The translations under genes were made by a program, and so were the position numbers. This document shows, piece by piece, positions 44,444 through 52,336 of a DNA stretch of 64,000 nt. This DNA comes from Deltaproteobacteria bacterium. Lineage in GTDB: Bacteria; Myxococcota; Kuafuiibacteriia; Kuafuiibacteriales; Kuafuiibacteriaceae. The notes beneath the pieces were generated by a model. It made no database searches. It was not told the origin of the DNA and saw only the letters and a list, made by a program, of their open reading frames with translations. The stretch lies in the NCBI GenBank assembly GCA_040218735.1, contig JAVJQW010000023.1, positions 416,001 to 480,000 on the forward strand, in the 5' to 3' direction. The stretch's first letter is position 1. Each line of letters starts with the position of its first letter.

Positions 44444-45814
44444 TCAGAACGTCATCACGCGACCGTGTCCGAGCTCCTTGATGAACCGATCGATCACGCG
44501 ACGATCCGTGCCCTTCGGGAACGCCATGATCGCCCCCGCGCCGTCGTTCCGGAACGGGCCGTCCGGGTCCTTCAGCAGATCGTCGGCGCGACGGAACTTC
44601 TCGAGCGAGTCACGCACCGCGTCCTCGTCGATCTTGCCGTTGCGCATGGCCTTGGCCTCACCGCCCACGAGCACACCGTAGCGTCCACGCCCCGTGGTCA
44701 TCATCAGATCGACCTCGGTGTCGCCGAACTCCTGGTTCCAACGACGCACGTCGAAGCCTTGCTTGCGCAGACCGTCCTCCGCGGCGATCTCCCGCAGCTC
44801 CCCGGTGATGCGTTTGGTGTCGCCGACGTCCGGTCGCGGCGCGCCCTTCTTCTTGAAGAGCCCGCGCACCATGTCGATGCCCTTCTTCGCCCAGTTCTTC
44901 GGGTTGCCGAGCTGCGCGATCGTCGTCGCGACGCCGAGCGCCGCCCCCACGTTCCCGTCCGTCCCCTTCGCCGGATCGAACTTCGGGATGCGACCGTCCT
45001 CCATGCGCTTCTGCAGCTCCTGGAGCTGGGCCTGGGACTTCGACTCCCCCGCCGCCTGCGCGAGCATCCCCGGGATGCCGGTCGCCGCGATGAACTCACC
45101 GGCGAGCGCGCGTCCCGGGATGCCATCCACCTTGTCGAGCAGCTGCGCGTTGGTCATCTCGGACGGCGGCGTGGAGCCCGCCACGCGGTGCTGCGCGAGG
45201 CGGTTCGCCTCCCCGAGCGTCTTGTAGGTCTCGGCCGCCTTCGCGTCGTCGCGCCGAGCGAGCGCCGTGTCGCTCCGCGCGAGCTCCCGCCACGACTTCT
45301 CCGACCAGGGCGCGGTCTTGTCCCCGAACTGGTACTGCCGCTGCGTCTCACGCGACAGCTCCGCGAGCTCGGGGTTGTTGAAGTCGCGGTTCTTCGTCGC
45401 GTCCGAGAAGCGTCGATCGATCTCCCCGTGCAGCGCCTTCCACCCGTCGGGCGTAACGTTCTTGCCGAAGCCCATGTCCTTCGCGTCGACGCCCTTCACG
45501 GTTTGTGTGAGCTCGGGCGTCGTCATGCCCTTCAGACGCTCCGCCATCTGCGTCTGCGACAGCGTCGTGTCCGCGAGGAACGACGCCGGGTTGTCCTTCG
45601 ACCGCGCGCCGTTCACATCCGCGACCTTGAAGGTGTCCGGCGTGTGCGTCGTGCCGGCGGTCTGGAGCGCCTGCCCCGAGACGTCGCGCCCGTTCACCTC
45701 GTCCGCCGCCTTGGTGACCTCCGCTAGGTCGGCGCCCGTAGGCTGTTTGTCGTCGTTGGCGCGCTCGGTGGCGCGCACTCGGGTTCGATCGTTGTCGACA
45801 GTCGTATCGGTCAT
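44444..45814 (-). CDS. Hypothetical protein with C-terminal PD-(D/E)XK (YraN/REase-like) nuclease domain; candidate toxin
   Basis: GELREIAAEDGLRKQGF..EVDLMM..VGGEAK pattern; ATG 45814 preceded by GAGG. Confidence 0.6.
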   Translation of the reverse strand: MTDTTVDNDRTRVRATERANDDKQPTGADLAEVTKAADEVNGRDVSGQALQTAGTTHTPDTFKVADVNGARSKDNPASFLADTTLSQTQMAERLKGMTTPELTQTVKGVDAKDMGFGKNVTPDGWKALHGEIDRRFSDATKNRDFNNPELAELSRETQRQYQFGDKTAPWSEKSWRELARSDTALARRDDAKAAETYKTLGEANRLAQHRVAGSTPPSEMTNAQLLDKVDGIPGRALAGEFIAATGIPGMLAQAAGESKSQAQLQELQKRMEDGRIPKFDPAKGTDGNVGAALGVATTIAQLGNPKNWAKKGIDMVRGLFKKKGAPRPDVGDTKRITGELREIAAEDGLRKQGFDVRRWNQEFGDTEVDLMMTTGRGRYGVLVGGEAKAMRNGKIDEDAVRDSLEKFRRADDLLKDPDGPFRNDGAGAIMAFPKGTDRRVIDRFIKELGHGRVMTF

Positions 45815-45819
45815 CTTCT

Positions 45820-46323
45820 TCACCTCACGCGCCGCACACGCGGCACGCCGATCCCGCCGGCGACGTCGAGAAACTCACGCAGCGGTATGGTCCCTTCAAT
45901 AGATTCGTTTCGATCGTGCACGGGCGCGTCGAGGTCGACCGCCCTCCCCTCGCGCCGACGGAAGCGACGCGTCTCGTCGATGTGCTCCGCGTGGATCAGC
46001 TGGAGCTGAACGACGCGCAACGCCTCCGGCTCCGCCGCGAGCAACGCGCGCATCCGCAGGGCGACCCCGGGCGACTCGAGCTTGCCGTCGAACGCGGCGG
46101 CCAACGCGAGGTACCGGTAGAGCTCCGCCTTCGCCTGTCGGGTCTCGGCCGCCGCGGCGAGCGCGCGGCGAATAGCCTCGAACGCGTGCGCCGGCAGCGC
46201 GAAGCGCTCCTCGGTCCCGACTTCGAGGTTCGACGTGACGACGTGCTCCAACCGATTCACGAGATCTTGTTTCGGCGGAGGCACGAAGAACGTTGCGCGC
46301 CGCAGAACGAATACCCAAATCAA
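45820..46323 (-). CDS. Hypothetical helical protein coupled to the nuclease-domain gene
   Basis: Stop lies 5 nt before the downstream ATG; start uncertain. Confidence 0.55.
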   Translation of the reverse strand: MIWVFVLRRATFFVPPPKQDLVNRLEHVVTSNLEVGTEERFALPAHAFEAIRRALAAAAETRQAKAELYRYLALAAAFDGKLESPGVALRMRALLAAEPEALRVVQLQLIHAEHIDETRRFRRREGRAVDLDAPVHDRNESIEGTIPLREFLDVAGGIGVPRVRRVR

Positions 46324-46546
46324 TACAGATACTTACGTGGTGAGATCGAGACCCCGTCCGCCCCACCTGAACGGCGCGAGCGCCGAGCCATAGAAGTCGT
46401 CGCGATTGTCGAGACCTACGATCGTGTGTGGCGCATTCAGTGTGGGGCGAACGTCCCGGCGCCGATCTTCGACGCTGGTTCGCGGGTCGGGTGCACGTTG
46501 AACACGAACGCGCGTCCGTCGACCGTCGGTCCACAACGCAGAGCGG

Positions 46547-47854
46547 ATGGAGGAGGCTTCGGCGATGCGGCGTTCGGCCCTCCTCATCACCGCGGTCACC
46601 CTCGCCGGGTGCACCGGCAACGACCTCTTGAACCAGGTCACCGACCGCGACGCCGGTCCACGACGCGACGGTGGAGGGAACGTCTCACCGTTCGACGCCG
46701 GCTCCCTCGACGGTGGTTCGCGAGACGGCGGCAACGTGACGGACGGTGGCGCGAGGGACGGCGGCGCCGCGACGTCCTGTGGCTTCGACGCGCTCGGCGA
46801 TCCGGATCGACCGCGGGTCCTCCTCGTCGGCCACGGATTCACCGCGGACCCCAACACCCCCGGTACCCAGGTGCGCTCCATGTCGGTCGCCGCGGACGGC
46901 AACCTCGTCGACGACGGCGTCCGCGTGAACGTCGGCTTCCGCCCGGCGCGGATCGAGTTCCTCCCCTTCGGCGGCATCGCGCTGGTGCTCGGCGAAGACG
47001 GCGAAGTCGCCTCGCTCGCGGTGGACGGCGCCGCCAACGTCACGGTCGTCGACACCGTCGCGCTCGAGCCCGCGTTGTTCGGCGACCTCCGCATCGCCCC
47101 GGACGGCGAGTCCGCCTTCGCGGTGGGCTTCGACAGCTCCCCGACCGCCGGCATCTCCACCGTCCGCATCGCGTGCGACGGCCAGCTCACCGTCGACACC
47201 AACGCGTTCTTCCCGCTGCGGCTCCCGCAGTCCCTCGTCCCGGTCGGCCAAGACCGCTGGGTCATCCTCGGCGGCCAAGCGGTGTTCGACCCGATCGACG
47301 ACGACGACGTGCGCCTCCTCTCCGTCTCCGCCGGCGGCTTCACATCCGTCGTCACCGCCGACATCTACACCGACGCGATCTCCGCCGACCGCATCGCCGC
47401 CAAACACGACGGCTCGACCGTGCTGATCCCGAACAACTCGGGCTTCTCGACCAAGACCGAGCAACTCGCGATCGTCGACGTCGTCGGCGACACCCTCGTC
47501 GACCGCGGGCGCATCACGGGCCTCACCGATCCCGCCGACGTCCTGTGGTCCGCCGACGACCAGACCGCGCTCGTAGCGCTCTTCCAACCCGGCCGCGTCG
47601 CCGTGCTCGCCGACCAGGGCAACGGCCTGACCGAGGTCGACCGCATTACGGGCATCGGCCTCGCCGGGCAGATGGCTCCGATCGAGCGCGGCATGTTGAA
47701 CGGGCGCGTCTTCGTCAGCTCGGTGGACGCAAACGGCTTCCCGAACATCGCGCGCCTCGCGATCCAGGGGCCGGGGGTGGTCGTGAGCCTCGGCGACTTC
47801 GACTTCGCGGACGGCAGCGAGAACATCCCGTCGACGATCGCGGTGACGCCGTAG
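46547..47854 (+). CDS. Beta-propeller lipoprotein (lactonase/YVTN-like)
   Basis: Lipobox LAGC; RDGG linker; propeller-like repeats (IAPDGESAF, DGSTVLI, WSADDQTALV); start may be ATG 46565. Confidence 0.75.
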   Translation: MEEASAMRRSALLITAVTLAGCTGNDLLNQVTDRDAGPRRDGGGNVSPFDAGSLDGGSRDGGNVTDGGARDGGAATSCGFDALGDPDRPRVLLVGHGFTADPNTPGTQVRSMSVAADGNLVDDGVRVNVGFRPARIEFLPFGGIALVLGEDGEVASLAVDGAANVTVVDTVALEPALFGDLRIAPDGESAFAVGFDSSPTAGISTVRIACDGQLTVDTNAFFPLRLPQSLVPVGQDRWVILGGQAVFDPIDDDDVRLLSVSAGGFTSVVTADIYTDAISADRIAAKHDGSTVLIPNNSGFSTKTEQLAIVDVVGDTLVDRGRITGLTDPADVLWSADDQTALVALFQPGRVAVLADQGNGLTEVDRITGIGLAGQMAPIERGMLNGRVFVSSVDANGFPNIARLAIQGPGVVVSLGDFDFADGSENIPSTIAVTP

Positions 47855-47856
47855 CG

Positions 47857-48330
47857 CTACAACCGACGCAGCAGCGGGAACTTCAGGCGGTACGCGTCCT
47901 GCGCCCAGCGCGGGAGCGCCGACCAGTTCTTCTCGAGGTGCGTGATGTCCTCTTCGCCCGGCTCGATCTCCCCCGACGGGAACGCGATGGTGTGCTCGAG
48001 CGGCACGGCGATCACGTCGCCCTTGCGCCCGACGTACTTCAGGATCTCCACCCCGTCGCGCGTGCCCGAAGCGTCACGCGACTCGGCGATCTCCAGCCCC
48101 GTCACGTACGTCGACAGGTAGATCGATAGGATCTCGATCGTCTGCGCGAACCACGGGAGGCGCTCCTCGGTCTCGGCGTCGATCGCGAGGCGCCCCGACC
48201 GAATGCGGGCGTCGAGCTCCTCCGGCCCCATCGCGTCCGCGAGCGGGAAGTCCTCGTCCTCGATCGCGTCGGCGAGGTGCCCGCGCTCGACGCCGTCGAT
48301 CTCGAGGTCCATCAGATACCGATACAGCAC
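47857..48330 (-). CDS. Acidic hypothetical protein directly downstream of the retron RT; candidate retron effector or accessory protein
   Basis: Begins 19 nt after the RT stop on the same strand; AGGA 7 nt before GTG; no recognised motif. Confidence 0.65.
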   Translation of the reverse strand: MLYRYLMDLEIDGVERGHLADAIEDEDFPLADAMGPEELDARIRSGRLAIDAETEERLPWFAQTIEILSIYLSTYVTGLEIAESRDASGTRDGVEILKYVGRKGDVIAVPLEHTIAFPSGEIEPGEEDITHLEKNWSALPRWAQDAYRLKFPLLRRL

Positions 48331-48349
48331 AGAGGCATCCTAACGAGTC

Positions 48350-49558
48350 TCACCCGCCGGACCAGTCGATTCGTTCGAAGAGCGCGAGCAGCTTCCGTCC
48401 GTGCGCGGCGTGGGCCTGTGCGACGTGCGCGATCCGCCCGCGCAGGCGATCGCGAGCGTCGGCGTCCCCCCCGTCCCGCGCGAGGTTGAACAGCGTCGCC
48501 TCCAGACGTTTGCGCTCGCGCTTCGACACCGCGGGGTGTGCGTTCACGACGAGCCCGGTCACGGTCTGCCGACGGTGCGCGCGCATCCAGCGGGTCTTGG
48601 CGCGGTGGAGCGTGAAACCTTCGTCCGCGACGATCATCGCGACTGCGTCTGCGAGCGCCTCGTACGATTCGTCCGACGAGAACACGAGGTCGTCGGCGTA
48701 CCGCGTGTACGTCGCGCCGAAGCGATCCGCGAGGCCGGCCAGGCGCACGTCGAGTCGAAACGCGACGAGGTTCGCGAGGTACGGCGAGCTCGGCGCCCCC
48801 TGCGGGAGGTGACGGCCGCTGTAGATCGGCTCACGCGTGACGTGCGTCGGCGTAGTGGTCGTCGTGAGCCCCGTGAGCAGCTCGGCCACCGTCTCCGGAT
48901 AGCCGGCCGCCATGAAGACCGCGCGCACCCGACGGGCGAAGATCGACGGAAAGAACCGCCGCAAGTCGAAGCGCAGCACCAACCGACGCCCGACGTGCAT
49001 CGCGGCGTTGGTGCGGTGCGATCGGCCGCGCACATACGCGTGCGCCGCAGGGTGCACCGGGATGGATTCGAGGACGTCGCGCAGGATCCTCCGCTGGATC
49101 TTCGCGAGCTGGGCCTTCGGTGCTTCGATCAACCGCGCCCCCGCGAAGTAACGGACGTAGTGATGCAGCGGCCCCGGCGGCGCACGATCGAGGTAGCCGT
49201 TCACGTCCGCCCAACCTTCGAGCGAACGCAGCGGCATCTCGAGCCAGCGCGCGAGCTCGGCGACGTCGCAGACCGATCGCACCGGCCACCGCGGCACGTG
49301 CATGTGTGTCGCGGGGAAGAAGTACCGCGCCGGGATGGGCATCGGCTCCGCGTCCTCGTACGCCGGCAGCGCGTGGACGAACCGCCACAAAGTCTCGAAG
49401 CGCGGCGGGCGTCGGTACCGACCATGAACGGCGTCGACCACCTCCGGCAGCCACGGCGCCGGCGGCAACAACGCCGCGTGGCCAAACTCGAGCAGCCCGC
49501 GCTTCGTCCAGTCGGAGGCGAGGAACGCACGCGCGAGCGCTTGGGCGACGACGATCAT
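48350..49558 (-). CDS. Retron-type reverse transcriptase
   Basis: RLIEAPK, region X NAAMH (NAxxH), FDLRRFFPSI, LPQGAPSSPYLAN, YTRYADDL, region Y QTVTGLVVN. Confidence 0.93.
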   Translation of the reverse strand: MIVVAQALARAFLASDWTKRGLLEFGHAALLPPAPWLPEVVDAVHGRYRRPPRFETLWRFVHALPAYEDAEPMPIPARYFFPATHMHVPRWPVRSVCDVAELARWLEMPLRSLEGWADVNGYLDRAPPGPLHHYVRYFAGARLIEAPKAQLAKIQRRILRDVLESIPVHPAAHAYVRGRSHRTNAAMHVGRRLVLRFDLRRFFPSIFARRVRAVFMAAGYPETVAELLTGLTTTTTPTHVTREPIYSGRHLPQGAPSSPYLANLVAFRLDVRLAGLADRFGATYTRYADDLVFSSDESYEALADAVAMIVADEGFTLHRAKTRWMRAHRRQTVTGLVVNAHPAVSKRERKRLEATLFNLARDGGDADARDRLRGRIAHVAQAHAAHGRKLLALFERIDWSGG

Positions 49559-49566
49559 GGGGCGAA

Positions 49567-49710
49567 CGCGCTCCGACTCACCGGTTGGGCCTGGCCGGTC
49601 CTACGTCGAACGGCGTAGTGGAGGCCAGGCGACGAACCGTTCTACTCATCACGCAACCCTGGAGGAGCCCCAGAGCCGAGGTTCGAAGACCTCGCGATAC
49701 TCGGAGCGCG
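49567..49710 (-). ncRNA. Retron msr-msd non-coding RNA
   Basis: Perfect 10-bp a1/a2 inverted repeat (49567-49576 / 49701-49710); unpaired G at 49700; msr hairpins 49677-49694 and 49657-49675; msd hairpin 49582-49639. Confidence 0.8.
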
Positions 49711-49758
49711 CCGCCGCCGGGGAGCCTACCGCATCTGTCCCGGTTGCGTCGTACCGCG

Positions 49759-50409
49759 TCAGGGGCGCGTCGCGATCCAGATGACGTGGTCGCTCCGGTC
49801 GAGGCCGCCGGAGCGCACGATCTCGACGCGTACGCCGAAGCCGCGTGACTCCAGCCGCGCCGTGAATGCGTCGTTGGGTTGCGCGGACCACACCGCGAGG
49901 ACGCCGCCGGGCTGGAGCGCGTCGAACGCCGCGTCGAGGCCCGACGTCGCGTAGAGGTGATCGTTATCCGCGCGCGTGAGGCCTTCAGGGCCGTTGTCGA
50001 CGTCGAGGAGGATGACGTCCCACTTCGCCGACCGCATCACGACGCCGACGTCGTCGGTCACGACGGTCACGCGCGGATCGTCGAGCGCGCGGTTCGACAC
50101 GACACCGAGGGGACCCTGGTTCCAGCGAACGACGGCCGGCACGAGCTCCGCGACGTGGACCCGCGCGTCTTCGCCGAGCTGGTCCAGCGCGGCGCGGAGC
50201 GTGAGCCCCATACCTAGACCACCGATCAAGATCAAACGGGTGTCCGCCGTGCACGTGAGCCGTGCGAGGGCGAGCTCGGAGTCGTGCACGCGCGAGTCCA
50301 TCAGGCGTCGGTGGTCGATGAAGATGGCGAAGTCGTCGTCGCGACGGTGCAGCGACAACACCCCCTCGCCCCCGGGCACGGGCGAGGAATCGATCAGCTC
50401 CCAGACCAC
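49759..50409 (-). CDS. Spermidine synthase-like SAM-dependent methyltransferase
   Basis: ILIGGLGMGLTL, VAELVPAVVRWN, DVILLDVDNGP, LQPGGVLAVWS. Confidence 0.85.
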   Translation of the reverse strand: MVWELIDSSPVPGGEGVLSLHRRDDDFAIFIDHRRLMDSRVHDSELALARLTCTADTRLILIGGLGMGLTLRAALDQLGEDARVHVAELVPAVVRWNQGPLGVVSNRALDDPRVTVVTDDVGVVMRSAKWDVILLDVDNGPEGLTRADNDHLYATSGLDAAFDALQPGGVLAVWSAQPNDAFTARLESRGFGVRVEIVRSGGLDRSDHVIWIATRP

Positions 50410-50442
50410 CCGGCGGAACTTACACCGTCCGGCTCCGGTCGG

Positions 50443-51351
50443 TCAGGCCGGTTGAGCTGCGCCGGCGCGGTAGAACGCGGGCGCTTCGCCGACGGCGCGT
50501 TTGAACGCACGCGAGAAAGCGAACTCCGACGTGTACCCCACACGTTCGGCGATCTGGGCGAGGGTGTCGTCCGTGGTGCGGAGCAGCTCGGCGCCGCGCG
50601 CCATCCGCAGGCGCGTGAGGTAGCCGAGCGGCGTGTCGCCGAGTGTGTCGCGGAAGCGACGCGCAAACGCCGGCCGCGACATCGTCGCGACGCGGGCGAG
50701 CGACGTGACGGACCAGGACGCCTCCGGCTGCTCGTGCATCGCCGCGAGGGAGCGCGCGAGCCGCTTGTCGCGCATCGCGCCGACCCACCCCGAGTCGGGC
50801 GCCTCGTTCTCGACCCAGTGGCGGACGACGTAGACGAGGAACGCCTCGAGGAGCAGCTCGACGACCGCGGACCGCCCCGGCGACTCGTCGCGGAGCTCGG
50901 CGAGCAACAGTCGCAGACAGGGCGACAGCGAGGGGCAGCACTGGATGATCTCCGCGCGGATGTGAATGAGCTCCGGCATCTCGCGGAGGAGCGGGTGAAG
51001 ACCGCGCAGGTCAGAGCCGAGCTTCTGGGCGGCGCACACGATGCGTGCGTTGACCGGCACGTCGTGGGTCGGCGCGGCCGCGAGGAACTGGTCGAGGGGC
51101 TGGGCGCGCCGGCGCGGAGCATCGGCGATCGTGTGCTTCGCGCCGCGCGGGAGGAGCGCGACGTCGCCTTGCAAGAGCTTCACGGCGGGGTCGCGTCCGA
51201 CGCGCAACCAACATTCGCCGCTCTCGACGAAGTGCAGGCCGGCCGTGGCGCCACCGTCGAGCTGAACGCCCCAGGCGCCCCGATACTCGTGTCGGCTGAG
51301 GATGACCGGCTTGGAGCCGCCGCGGAGGATGTCGCTCAAGACGTCCATCAT
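50443..51351 (-). CDS. AraC family transcriptional regulator with N-terminal cupin domain
   Basis: HFVESGECWL cupin; WSVTSLARVATMSRPAFARRF and IAERVGYTSEFAFSRAFKR HTHs. Confidence 0.93.
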   Translation of the reverse strand: MMDVLSDILRGGSKPVILSRHEYRGAWGVQLDGGATAGLHFVESGECWLRVGRDPAVKLLQGDVALLPRGAKHTIADAPRRRAQPLDQFLAAAPTHDVPVNARIVCAAQKLGSDLRGLHPLLREMPELIHIRAEIIQCCPSLSPCLRLLLAELRDESPGRSAVVELLLEAFLVYVVRHWVENEAPDSGWVGAMRDKRLARSLAAMHEQPEASWSVTSLARVATMSRPAFARRFRDTLGDTPLGYLTRLRMARGAELLRTTDDTLAQIAERVGYTSEFAFSRAFKRAVGEAPAFYRAGAAQPA

Positions 51352-51478
51352 TTGACGATGTCAGCGGCATCACCGTTTGTCTACGCGTTGAGCGTTCTGG
51401 ATAGGCCGACGCGAGCCTCGAACATGGTCGACCTCGACCGCGGCGCCTAACTTCGAGGCACAAAGGAGCCACACTGAA

Positions 51479-52336
51479 ATGACCAAGATTCTCGTCCTAG
51501 GTTCAACCGGAACGGTCGGCGCCGGCCTCGTGGAGGGCCTCGTCGCGCGCGGCGCCGACGTTCGCGCCGCGACACGCAGCCCCGGCGGCTACGCAGGCCC
51601 GCGCGGTGCGACCCCCGTCGCGTTCGATGCGACCAACCCCGAGACGTACGGACAGGCGCTCGACGGCGTCGACCGTGTGTTCCTCCTCTCGCCTCCCGGC
51701 CACGCCGACGCCCACGCGCTCCTCGCGCCCGTCGTCGAGGCGAGCGTGGCCGCGGGTGTGAAGCGCATCGTCACGATGACGGCGATGGGCGTCGACGCCA
51801 GCGACGAGATCCCGCTGCGGCGTCTGGAGCTCGCGGTCGAAGCGACCGGCGTCCCGTTCGCGCATCTGCGACCGAACTGGTTCGATCAGAACTTCCACAC
51901 GTTCTGGTACGAGCCGATCGCCAAGGCCGGCGTCATCCCGCTCCCCGCCGCGGACGCCAAGACCTCGTTCATCGATGCTCGCGACATCTCGGCCTCCGCC
52001 GTCGCCGCGCTCCTCGACGAAGGTGTCACGCAGAAGGCGTACACACTGACCGGCCCCGCGGCGCTAACCTACGCCGAGGCCGCGGCGATCCTCTCGAACG
52101 TCGGCGGACGGACGATCCAGTACGTGGACACGGACGAGGGGACGTTCGCGGAGAACCTCTCCGGAGCGGGGCTGCCGAGCGACTACGCCCAGCTGCTCGT
52201 CGGCCTCTTCCAGGTCGTGCGCGCGGGCGCGGCTGCCCCGGTGACCGGCGACGTGGAGCGGCTGACGAAGTCGAAGCCGCGCAGCGTCCGCCAGTACGCG
52301 CAGGACCACGCCGAAAAGTTCCGCACGCAGCTCTGA
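51479..52336 (+). CDS. NmrA-like / atypical SDR NAD(P)-binding oxidoreductase
   Basis: ILVLGSTGTVG, LRPNWFDQN, FIDARDI; AAGGAG RBS; divergent from the AraC gene. Confidence 0.9.
   Translation: MTKILVLGSTGTVGAGLVEGLVARGADVRAATRSPGGYAGPRGATPVAFDATNPETYGQALDGVDRVFLLSPPGHADAHALLAPVVEASVAAGVKRIVTMTAMGVDASDEIPLRRLELAVEATGVPFAHLRPNWFDQNFHTFWYEPIAKAGVIPLPAADAKTSFIDARDISASAVAALLDEGVTQKAYTLTGPAALTYAEAAAILSNVGGRTIQYVDTDEGTFAENLSGAGLPSDYAQLLVGLFQVVRAGAAAPVTGDVERLTKSKPRSVRQYAQDHAEKFRTQL

Follow-up and report, generated by a model that had tools for sequence, protein, structure and literature searches.

Does an open reading frame (ORF) that follows closely behind the reverse transcriptase (RT) gene of a retron belong to this retron as its effector? 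The question is raised by a locus on the minus strand of a 64,000-nucleotide stretch of DNA from a Deltaproteobacteria bacterium (Myxococcota; assembly GCA_040218735.1, contig JAVJQW010000023.1, positions 416,001 to 480,000), which is called the “window” below and to which all coordinates refer unless a contig is named. In this locus, an intergenic stretch of about 200 nucleotides (nt) containing a noncoding RNA (ncRNA) is followed by an ORF for an RT of 402 amino acids (aa) and then by a 157-aa ORF, “ORF157.” A first-pass annotation had described this ncRNA-RT-ORF unit between 47857 and 49710 and had proposed a candidate new retron system with ORF157 as the coupled third part. The unit is present on the minus strand as described, and the retron, composed of ncRNA and RT, is genuine. 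Judged by the gene neighborhoods of both protein families, a new three-part retron system with ORF157 as the effector appears unlikely, and the locus is probably a stand-alone-type retron that lies beside a relocated host gene.

The RT gene (48350 to 49558, minus strand, ATG start) encodes a protein with the motifs NAAMH at residue 184, LPQGAP at 251, YADD at 287, and VTG at 333; NAAMH, YADD, and VTG had already been recognized in the first-pass annotation. The available passages of Mestre et al. 2020 (PMC7736814) define the retron-specific “region X” by NAxxH and “region Y” by VTG, and both regions plus the YxDD catalytic motif are present here. The PADLOC profile RT_other (PDLC02949) matched residues 4 to 400 with an E value of 3.7e-128 and 426.7 bits, and RT_outgroup (PDLC03740; 2.5e-120) covered these residues with it. 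The best typed profile of PADLOC, RT_XIII (5.9e-88, 294 bits), matched only residues 133 to 397. RT_other and RT_outgroup cover an N-terminal extension of about 130 aa that is conserved across the subfamily, and the profiles of other RT types start at about residue 133. Pfam RVT_1 also matched the protein, the curated cutoffs of NCBIfam were not reached (retron_St85_RT, 188.6 bits versus 235; retron_Ec67_fus, 168 versus 450), and a group II intron profile scored only 46 bits.

An AlphaFold2 (AF2) model of the RT reached a predicted local distance difference test (pLDDT) value of 94.0, with the N-terminal extension modeled confidently as a helical domain. Its best structural matches were the solved retron RTs, led by Ec86 (E value of 6.9e-22) and followed by Eco2, Eco7, Ec78, Eco8, and Ec83, with E values of 7e-22 to 5e-15, template modeling (TM) scores of 0.56 to 0.78 normalized to the target, and sequence identities of 17 to 28%, while group II intron RTs reached only about 6e-10. 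In sequence and in fold, the protein resembles retron RTs and not other RT classes. By its profile matches, it belongs to the RT_other/RT_outgroup subfamily of PADLOC, as a relative of the type XIII RTs with an N-terminal extension of its own. Its named relatives among the matches listed were largely from Actinobacteria (Rhodococcus, Dactylosporangium, Hoyosella, and Solirubrobacter), with some from Myxococcota and Planctomycetota; the closest RT, P0060, is 68% identical. The genome carrying the window, G000, contains a second retron-type RT outside the window (locus L011, contig C8:38056-39012), which is 39% identical to the window RT over residues 96 to 401 and has one in-frame TAG; this copy is perhaps a pseudogene or else an RT similar to type XIII.

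The ncRNA (msr-msd) was located to positions 49559 to 49722 of the minus strand by its fold, a two-sequence consensus, a covariance model, and covariation. Its terminal stem is formed by the a2 inverted repeat as the 5' arm (49701 to 49710) and the a1 inverted repeat as the 3' arm (49567 to 49576), which flank the stretch upstream of the RT and are complementary in 10 of 10 bp, the consensus stem reaching to about 49716. The end of the a1 repeat is separated from the RT ATG by 8 nt, in agreement with the earlier reading of the sequence. Msr hairpins and one msd hairpin lie between the two arms; the msd stem-loop (49589 to 49630), an inverted repeat, is the putative template of the multicopy single-stranded DNA (msDNA). 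The 172-nt stretch upstream of the RT folds with a minimum free energy of −85.9 kcal/mol, with a z-score of just −2.1 versus shuffled sequences, so that the fold of the single sequence is weak evidence on its own and the decisive support for the ncRNA comes from comparison.

The same RNA is present in G011, the sister genome of the same genus, at its retron locus, L001. There, a U-A pair of the a1/a2 stem is changed to C-G, and the inner stems of msr and msd are re-made. A covariance model built from these two sequences was compared with the eight RT loci of the same subfamily outside the genus (L002, L007, L008, L009, and L063 to L066), the RTs of which are 45 to 56% identical to the window RT. 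It matched directly upstream of the RT in six of them (L065, L066, L064, L007, L002, and L009) with E values between 4e-9 and 0.011; no such RNA was found at an E value of ≤1 in L008 and L063. In the resulting alignment of eight sequences, which was fitted to the covariance model so that pairing was favored, 93.1% of the cells were paired, compared to 36 to 47% in slid controls, and 31 of the 46 pairs were changed on both sides. Double changes occurred in 11 of the 15 pairs of helix 1, the a1/a2 stem, and in 6 of the 8 pairs of helix 8, which belongs to the msd.

Two G residues were invariant in all eight ncRNAs, one directly 3' of a2 (49700) and one preceding a1 (49577). Retron ncRNAs carry “two opposing G residues” according to the passages available from Mestre et al. 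(PMC7736814), and by their position the Gs at 49700 and 49577 are judged to be this pair. The elements of a retron ncRNA are accordingly all in place: a contiguous RNA, end pairing by a1/a2, msr hairpins, an msd stem-loop, and the opposing Gs. Established retron biology suggests how they may be used. The ncRNA would be cotranscribed with the RT gene and its ends would pair via a1 and a2; the RT would then bind the msr hairpins and start from the 2'-OH of the G at 49700, the candidate branching residue, and copying of the msd hairpin region should yield a short msDNA of about 60 to 75 nt. A retron that is complete with ncRNA and RT, as claimed in the first-pass annotation, is hence upheld by the PADLOC profiles, the RT model, and the ncRNA covariation across eight loci.

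ORF157 (47857 to 48330, minus strand, GTG start), the membership of which in the retron is doubtful, begins 19 nt past the RT stop codon, behind a spacer (48331 to 48349) with its own AGGA, again as read before. It is a real gene, as indicated by a GC content at third codon positions (GC3) of 0.95, by 41 family representatives found at an E value of ≤1e-3 among 1.84 billion clustered proteins, mostly 150 to 170 aa long, and by a ratio of nonsynonymous to synonymous substitutions (dN/dS) of 0.18 versus the copy in G011. The family includes 17 close homologues, and P0003 (83% identity), P0004 (74%), and P0005 (68%) are the closest. The protein is acidic (pI 4.52) and matched nothing in Pfam, PADLOC, or NCBIfam. 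An AF2 model based on an alignment of 34 sequences was very confident (pLDDT of 96.3), and nothing convincing was found with it in the PDB by Foldseek (best E value of 0.2) or in BFVD (0.013); a wide VIA-align search gave at best a Z score of 5.8, for 2ijr (Api92/DUF1281), a value in the range of noise, and the ESM Atlas yielded no usable match. The earlier description of an acidic protein devoid of known effector signatures can therefore be kept, and extended by the missing recognizable fold. A prediction of an RT-ORF157 complex scored 0.00, with controls not run, and is evidence neither way.

Two members of the family, P0035 and P0043, carry the ORF157 domain fused C-terminally to an Rce1-like (CPBP) intramembrane protease domain. 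Directly upstream of the ORF157 member, two loci from another taxonomic family (L030 and L031) have a gene for a Ser/Thr kinase. The fusions and the kinase genes are the sole functional hints for the family. An Rfam scan matched no retron family; its sole match was Ms_AS-1, a mycobacterial small RNA, at 47975 to 48087 on the plus strand, antisense within ORF157. With 27.9 bits compared to a gathering score of 37 and an E value of 0.014, this match is probably due to chance in GC-rich DNA.

If ORF157 were a regular component of a retron system, its homologues should be found beside retron RTs. Five of the 20 genomes from the window's class contain a member, all five from one taxonomic family, as do 9 of the 401 sampled genomes of the phylum. 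Fourteen loci were examined, three of which (L033, L035, and L036) were too short and had to be dropped. An RT was located within the flanks in 2 of the remaining 11, namely in the window and in L001 of the same genus, and none within those of the other nine (L017, L018, L019, L028 to L032, and L034). In the genomes G013 and G001, ORF157 is present, and the sole RT is a more distant one, encoded far from it. A different neighborhood appeared instead in two other genera of the same family: in L017 and L018, the order is a REC-PilZ response regulator gene (RR-PilZ), an MTS-type methyltransferase gene, ORF157, and an aminotransferase gene, and this order recurs in the metagenome locus L032, minus the methyltransferase gene. 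Judged from these contexts, homologues of ORF157 do not seem to be preferentially placed beside retron RTs.

The reverse comparison, starting from the RT, agrees with this result. In the eight same-subfamily loci outside the genus, neither tblastn nor a profile search found a relative of ORF157 (zero of eight), and the ORF157 profile found no match among the ORFs downstream of the related RTs (best E value of 0.37). When the ten loci of the subfamily were compared pairwise at the level of translated DNA, only the RT and the ncRNA were common to them, with ORF157 in the window versus L001 as the single exception. Four genomes, G002, G004, G008, and G009, possess an RT of the subfamily and no member of the ORF157 family at an E value of ≤0.001. 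The recurrence beside related RTs that a coupled third part would lead one to expect was thus not observed. Of the three observations named beforehand as speaking against such a part, two were made: ORF157 homologues occur mostly without an RT, and close relatives of the RT have unrelated neighbors. The reading frames of the closest RT relatives from other genera are each interrupted by an in-frame stop codon, TGA in L063 (G008:C24) and TAG in L064 (G009:C316); the retron clade may be decaying in some lineages.

The sister genome allows the history of the locus to be traced. DNA homology between G000 and G011 is limited to the ncRNA plus RT (49729 to 48362) and to ORF157 (48330 to 47859), and both flanks are unrelated. 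Upstream of the retron, G011 has a gene for an M36 peptidase, the G000 ortholog of which is located on another contig and followed by different DNA. On the other side, the window contains three genes for products of 459, 167, and 435 aa at 44444 to 46323 (minus strand) and 46547 to 47854 (plus strand), none of which matched Pfam, PADLOC, or NCBIfam. Both segments are syntenic with G011 contig C1020, at 74% DNA identity, and this synteny ends at the stop codon adjacent to ORF157; the ortholog of the convergent gene at 46547 to 47854 is on a G011 contig other than that of the retron, and homology ends at its stop codon. Since orthologs of the outer flanking genes are missing from the respective other genome, an empty-site comparison of the two genomes could define neither the boundaries of an insertion nor repeats. 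A scan for promoters and terminators returned nothing useful in the high-GC DNA of the window.

Inside the shared segment, the two genomes differ in one aspect. The RT-ORF157 gap of G011 comprises 882 nt and holds a gene for a Sel1-repeat protein on the opposite strand (L001 5342-6173, minus), which has no homologue in G000. Repeat proteins accompany type XIII retrons. Because this opposite-strand gene lies in between, RT and ORF157 cannot form a simple operon in G011. ORF157 is present as a single copy in each of the two genomes, beside the retron, and is 87% identical between them, compared to 63% for the RT. The dN/dS values are 0.18 for ORF157 and 0.42 for the RT; dS is 0.57 for ORF157, 0.76 for the RT, and 0.59 for a flanking gene. 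The ancestral locus can be recognized in G000 (L054, C18:168000-177000) as well as in G011 (L055, C1448), where the RR-PilZ gene has remained next to the aminotransferase gene and ORF157 is gone from between them; the methyltransferase gene was kept in G011 and lost in G000. A gene located upstream of the retron, for a spermidine-synthase-like protein of 216 aa, was considered as a remnant of a methyltransferase-ORF157 pair that had been split by insertion of the retron. This was rejected: its product shares only about 20% identity with the MTS methyltransferases found in L017 and L018, the true ortholog of which remains in the RR-PilZ locus of G011.

Together, these data are best explained by a relocation. 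ORF157, a conserved chromosomal gene, would have been moved next to the retron in the ancestor of the genus, and it most likely retains a function that is independent of the RT instead of being an obligate third component of the retron. As the sole copy of a protein that functions in other genera without an RT, it should most simply keep that function, and the single copy together with a dN/dS of 0.18, versus 0.42 for the RT, fits a housekeeping-like ortholog under strong purifying selection. An effector for this retron clade may be absent, may be encoded elsewhere, or may reside within the N-terminal extension of the RT. Several observations weigh against this explanation. In G000, the short spacer and the AGGA in front of ORF157 look operon-like. 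The ncRNA-RT-ORF157 block is the only one common to the G000 and G011 loci, and because both flanks differ, its three parts must have stayed together through rearrangement. The similar dS values indicate that the block probably dates from the common ancestor of the two genomes, and in both of them ORF157 has moved out of the ancestral RR-PilZ/aminotransferase locus. Most characterized retrons need an effector, and none was identified here. Finally, the sample of the genus consists of two genomes plus near-identical strains. The strains, represented by DNA contigs from four runs, one of which, of 76 kb, covers 45500 to 52000, keep the arrangement but are not independent.

The same observations would be expected from a recruitment specific to this genus, in which the host gene was taken over by the retron before G000 and G011 diverged, with ORF157 now used as an effector or accessory protein, so that a very young tripartite system had emerged. 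A block that is the sole segment common to two differently placed loci, the removal of ORF157 from its ancestral site in both genomes, the 19-nt spacer with its ribosome-binding site in G000, and, with the restriction just mentioned, the near-identical strains all point in this direction, and the passages available from Mestre et al. (PMC7736814) depict retrons as modular cassettes that take up different effectors. Recruitment would nevertheless have to accommodate that 9 of the 11 ORF157-family loci have no RT, that none of the 8 related RT loci has a member of the ORF157 family, and that an opposite-strand gene splits RT and ORF157 in G011. It would also have to explain why a protein without toxin-like or nuclease-like features and without a fold match, the sole copy in its genome, is more conserved than the RT, which fits the retention of an ancestral RT-independent role. 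Such a recruitment is regarded as rather unlikely.

Alternatively, ORF157 may be irrelevant to a retron that has no neighboring effector at all, the active part being the N-terminal extension or a protein encoded elsewhere, or the cassette may be domesticated or decaying and no longer engaged in defense. The extension is conserved across the subfamily and forms a confidently folded helical domain, which would agree with an effector inside the RT, although no function was found for this domain, which was scanned only as part of the whole RT. Decay would account for the in-frame stops in two family-level relatives (TGA in G008 and TAG in G009), and some vertically inherited retrons are perhaps domesticated, as mentioned in the available part of Mestre et al. 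(PMC7736814). On the other hand, the dN/dS of the RT, 0.42, still indicates selection, and the structure of the ncRNA is maintained by compensatory changes. This possibility is considered quite improbable, and the preferred explanation remains a retron of the stand-alone type next to a host gene that was relocated.

The new result of this analysis is an ncRNA family with covariation and invariant opposing Gs, found in eight loci, for a little-investigated RT clade that had been left as “other” or “outgroup” and for which no effector is known. This family may be of help in studies of effector-less retrons or when compact retrons are mined for producing msDNA. The move of ORF157 to the retron, observed in one genus, is a minor curiosity of evolution. 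The locus illustrates that an ORF should not be named an effector on the strength of its close spacing to a retron RT alone. A tripartite system of a new kind would have been of greater importance, and comparative genomics makes such a system unlikely. If recruitment had occurred, the locus would be a caught-in-the-act example of effector acquisition by an otherwise stand-alone retron clade, and a function would be assigned to an uncharacterized protein family, the confidently predicted fold of which matches nothing solved.

How does this retron compare to the known systems? Although its RT is similar in fold to those of Ec86, Eco2/Ec67, Eco7, Ec78, Eco8, and Ec83, the effectors of these retrons, which are nucleoside deoxyribosyltransferase (NDT), Toprim, ATPase/HNH, and PtuAB proteins, are not present at the window retron. 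The type XIII retrons Mx162, Mx65, Sa163, and Ne144, which form Mestre clade 10, are linked to winged-helix/SWIM and HEAT/ARM-repeat proteins. The window retron is like them in its best typed profile, RT_XIII, in its myxobacterial host lineage, and in the presence of a second, type XIII-like RT in G000. It is unlike them in that the RT_XIII match is restricted to residues 133 to 397 and reaches 294 bits compared to 427 for RT_other, and none of the six immediate neighbor proteins, two upstream and four downstream, had a winged-helix/SWIM or HEAT/ARM-repeat match. Large upstream genes of this type XIII kind are located beside more distant RTs in L004 to L006.

The closer counterparts are stand-alone (msr-msd)-RT cassettes, which are found in some branches within RT clades 2 and 11, clade 11 being mostly actinobacterial, as stated in the available passages of Mestre et al. 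2020 (PMC7736814). This was the only publication found on this RT clade; nothing was found for Myxococcota, and a retron census preprint had no relevant passage. The window copy differs from such cassettes by its location in a large Myxococcota-like genome and by the tightly spaced downstream ORF. It resembles them, and the RT_other and RT_outgroup groups, in that the RT matches both PADLOC profiles over its full length, N-terminal extension included, in that the ncRNA lies directly upstream of the RT, and in that no neighboring gene is conserved across the ten loci. By its actinobacterial relatives and its stand-alone behavior, the window RT is indirectly consistent with clade 11 as outlined in these passages of Mestre et al.

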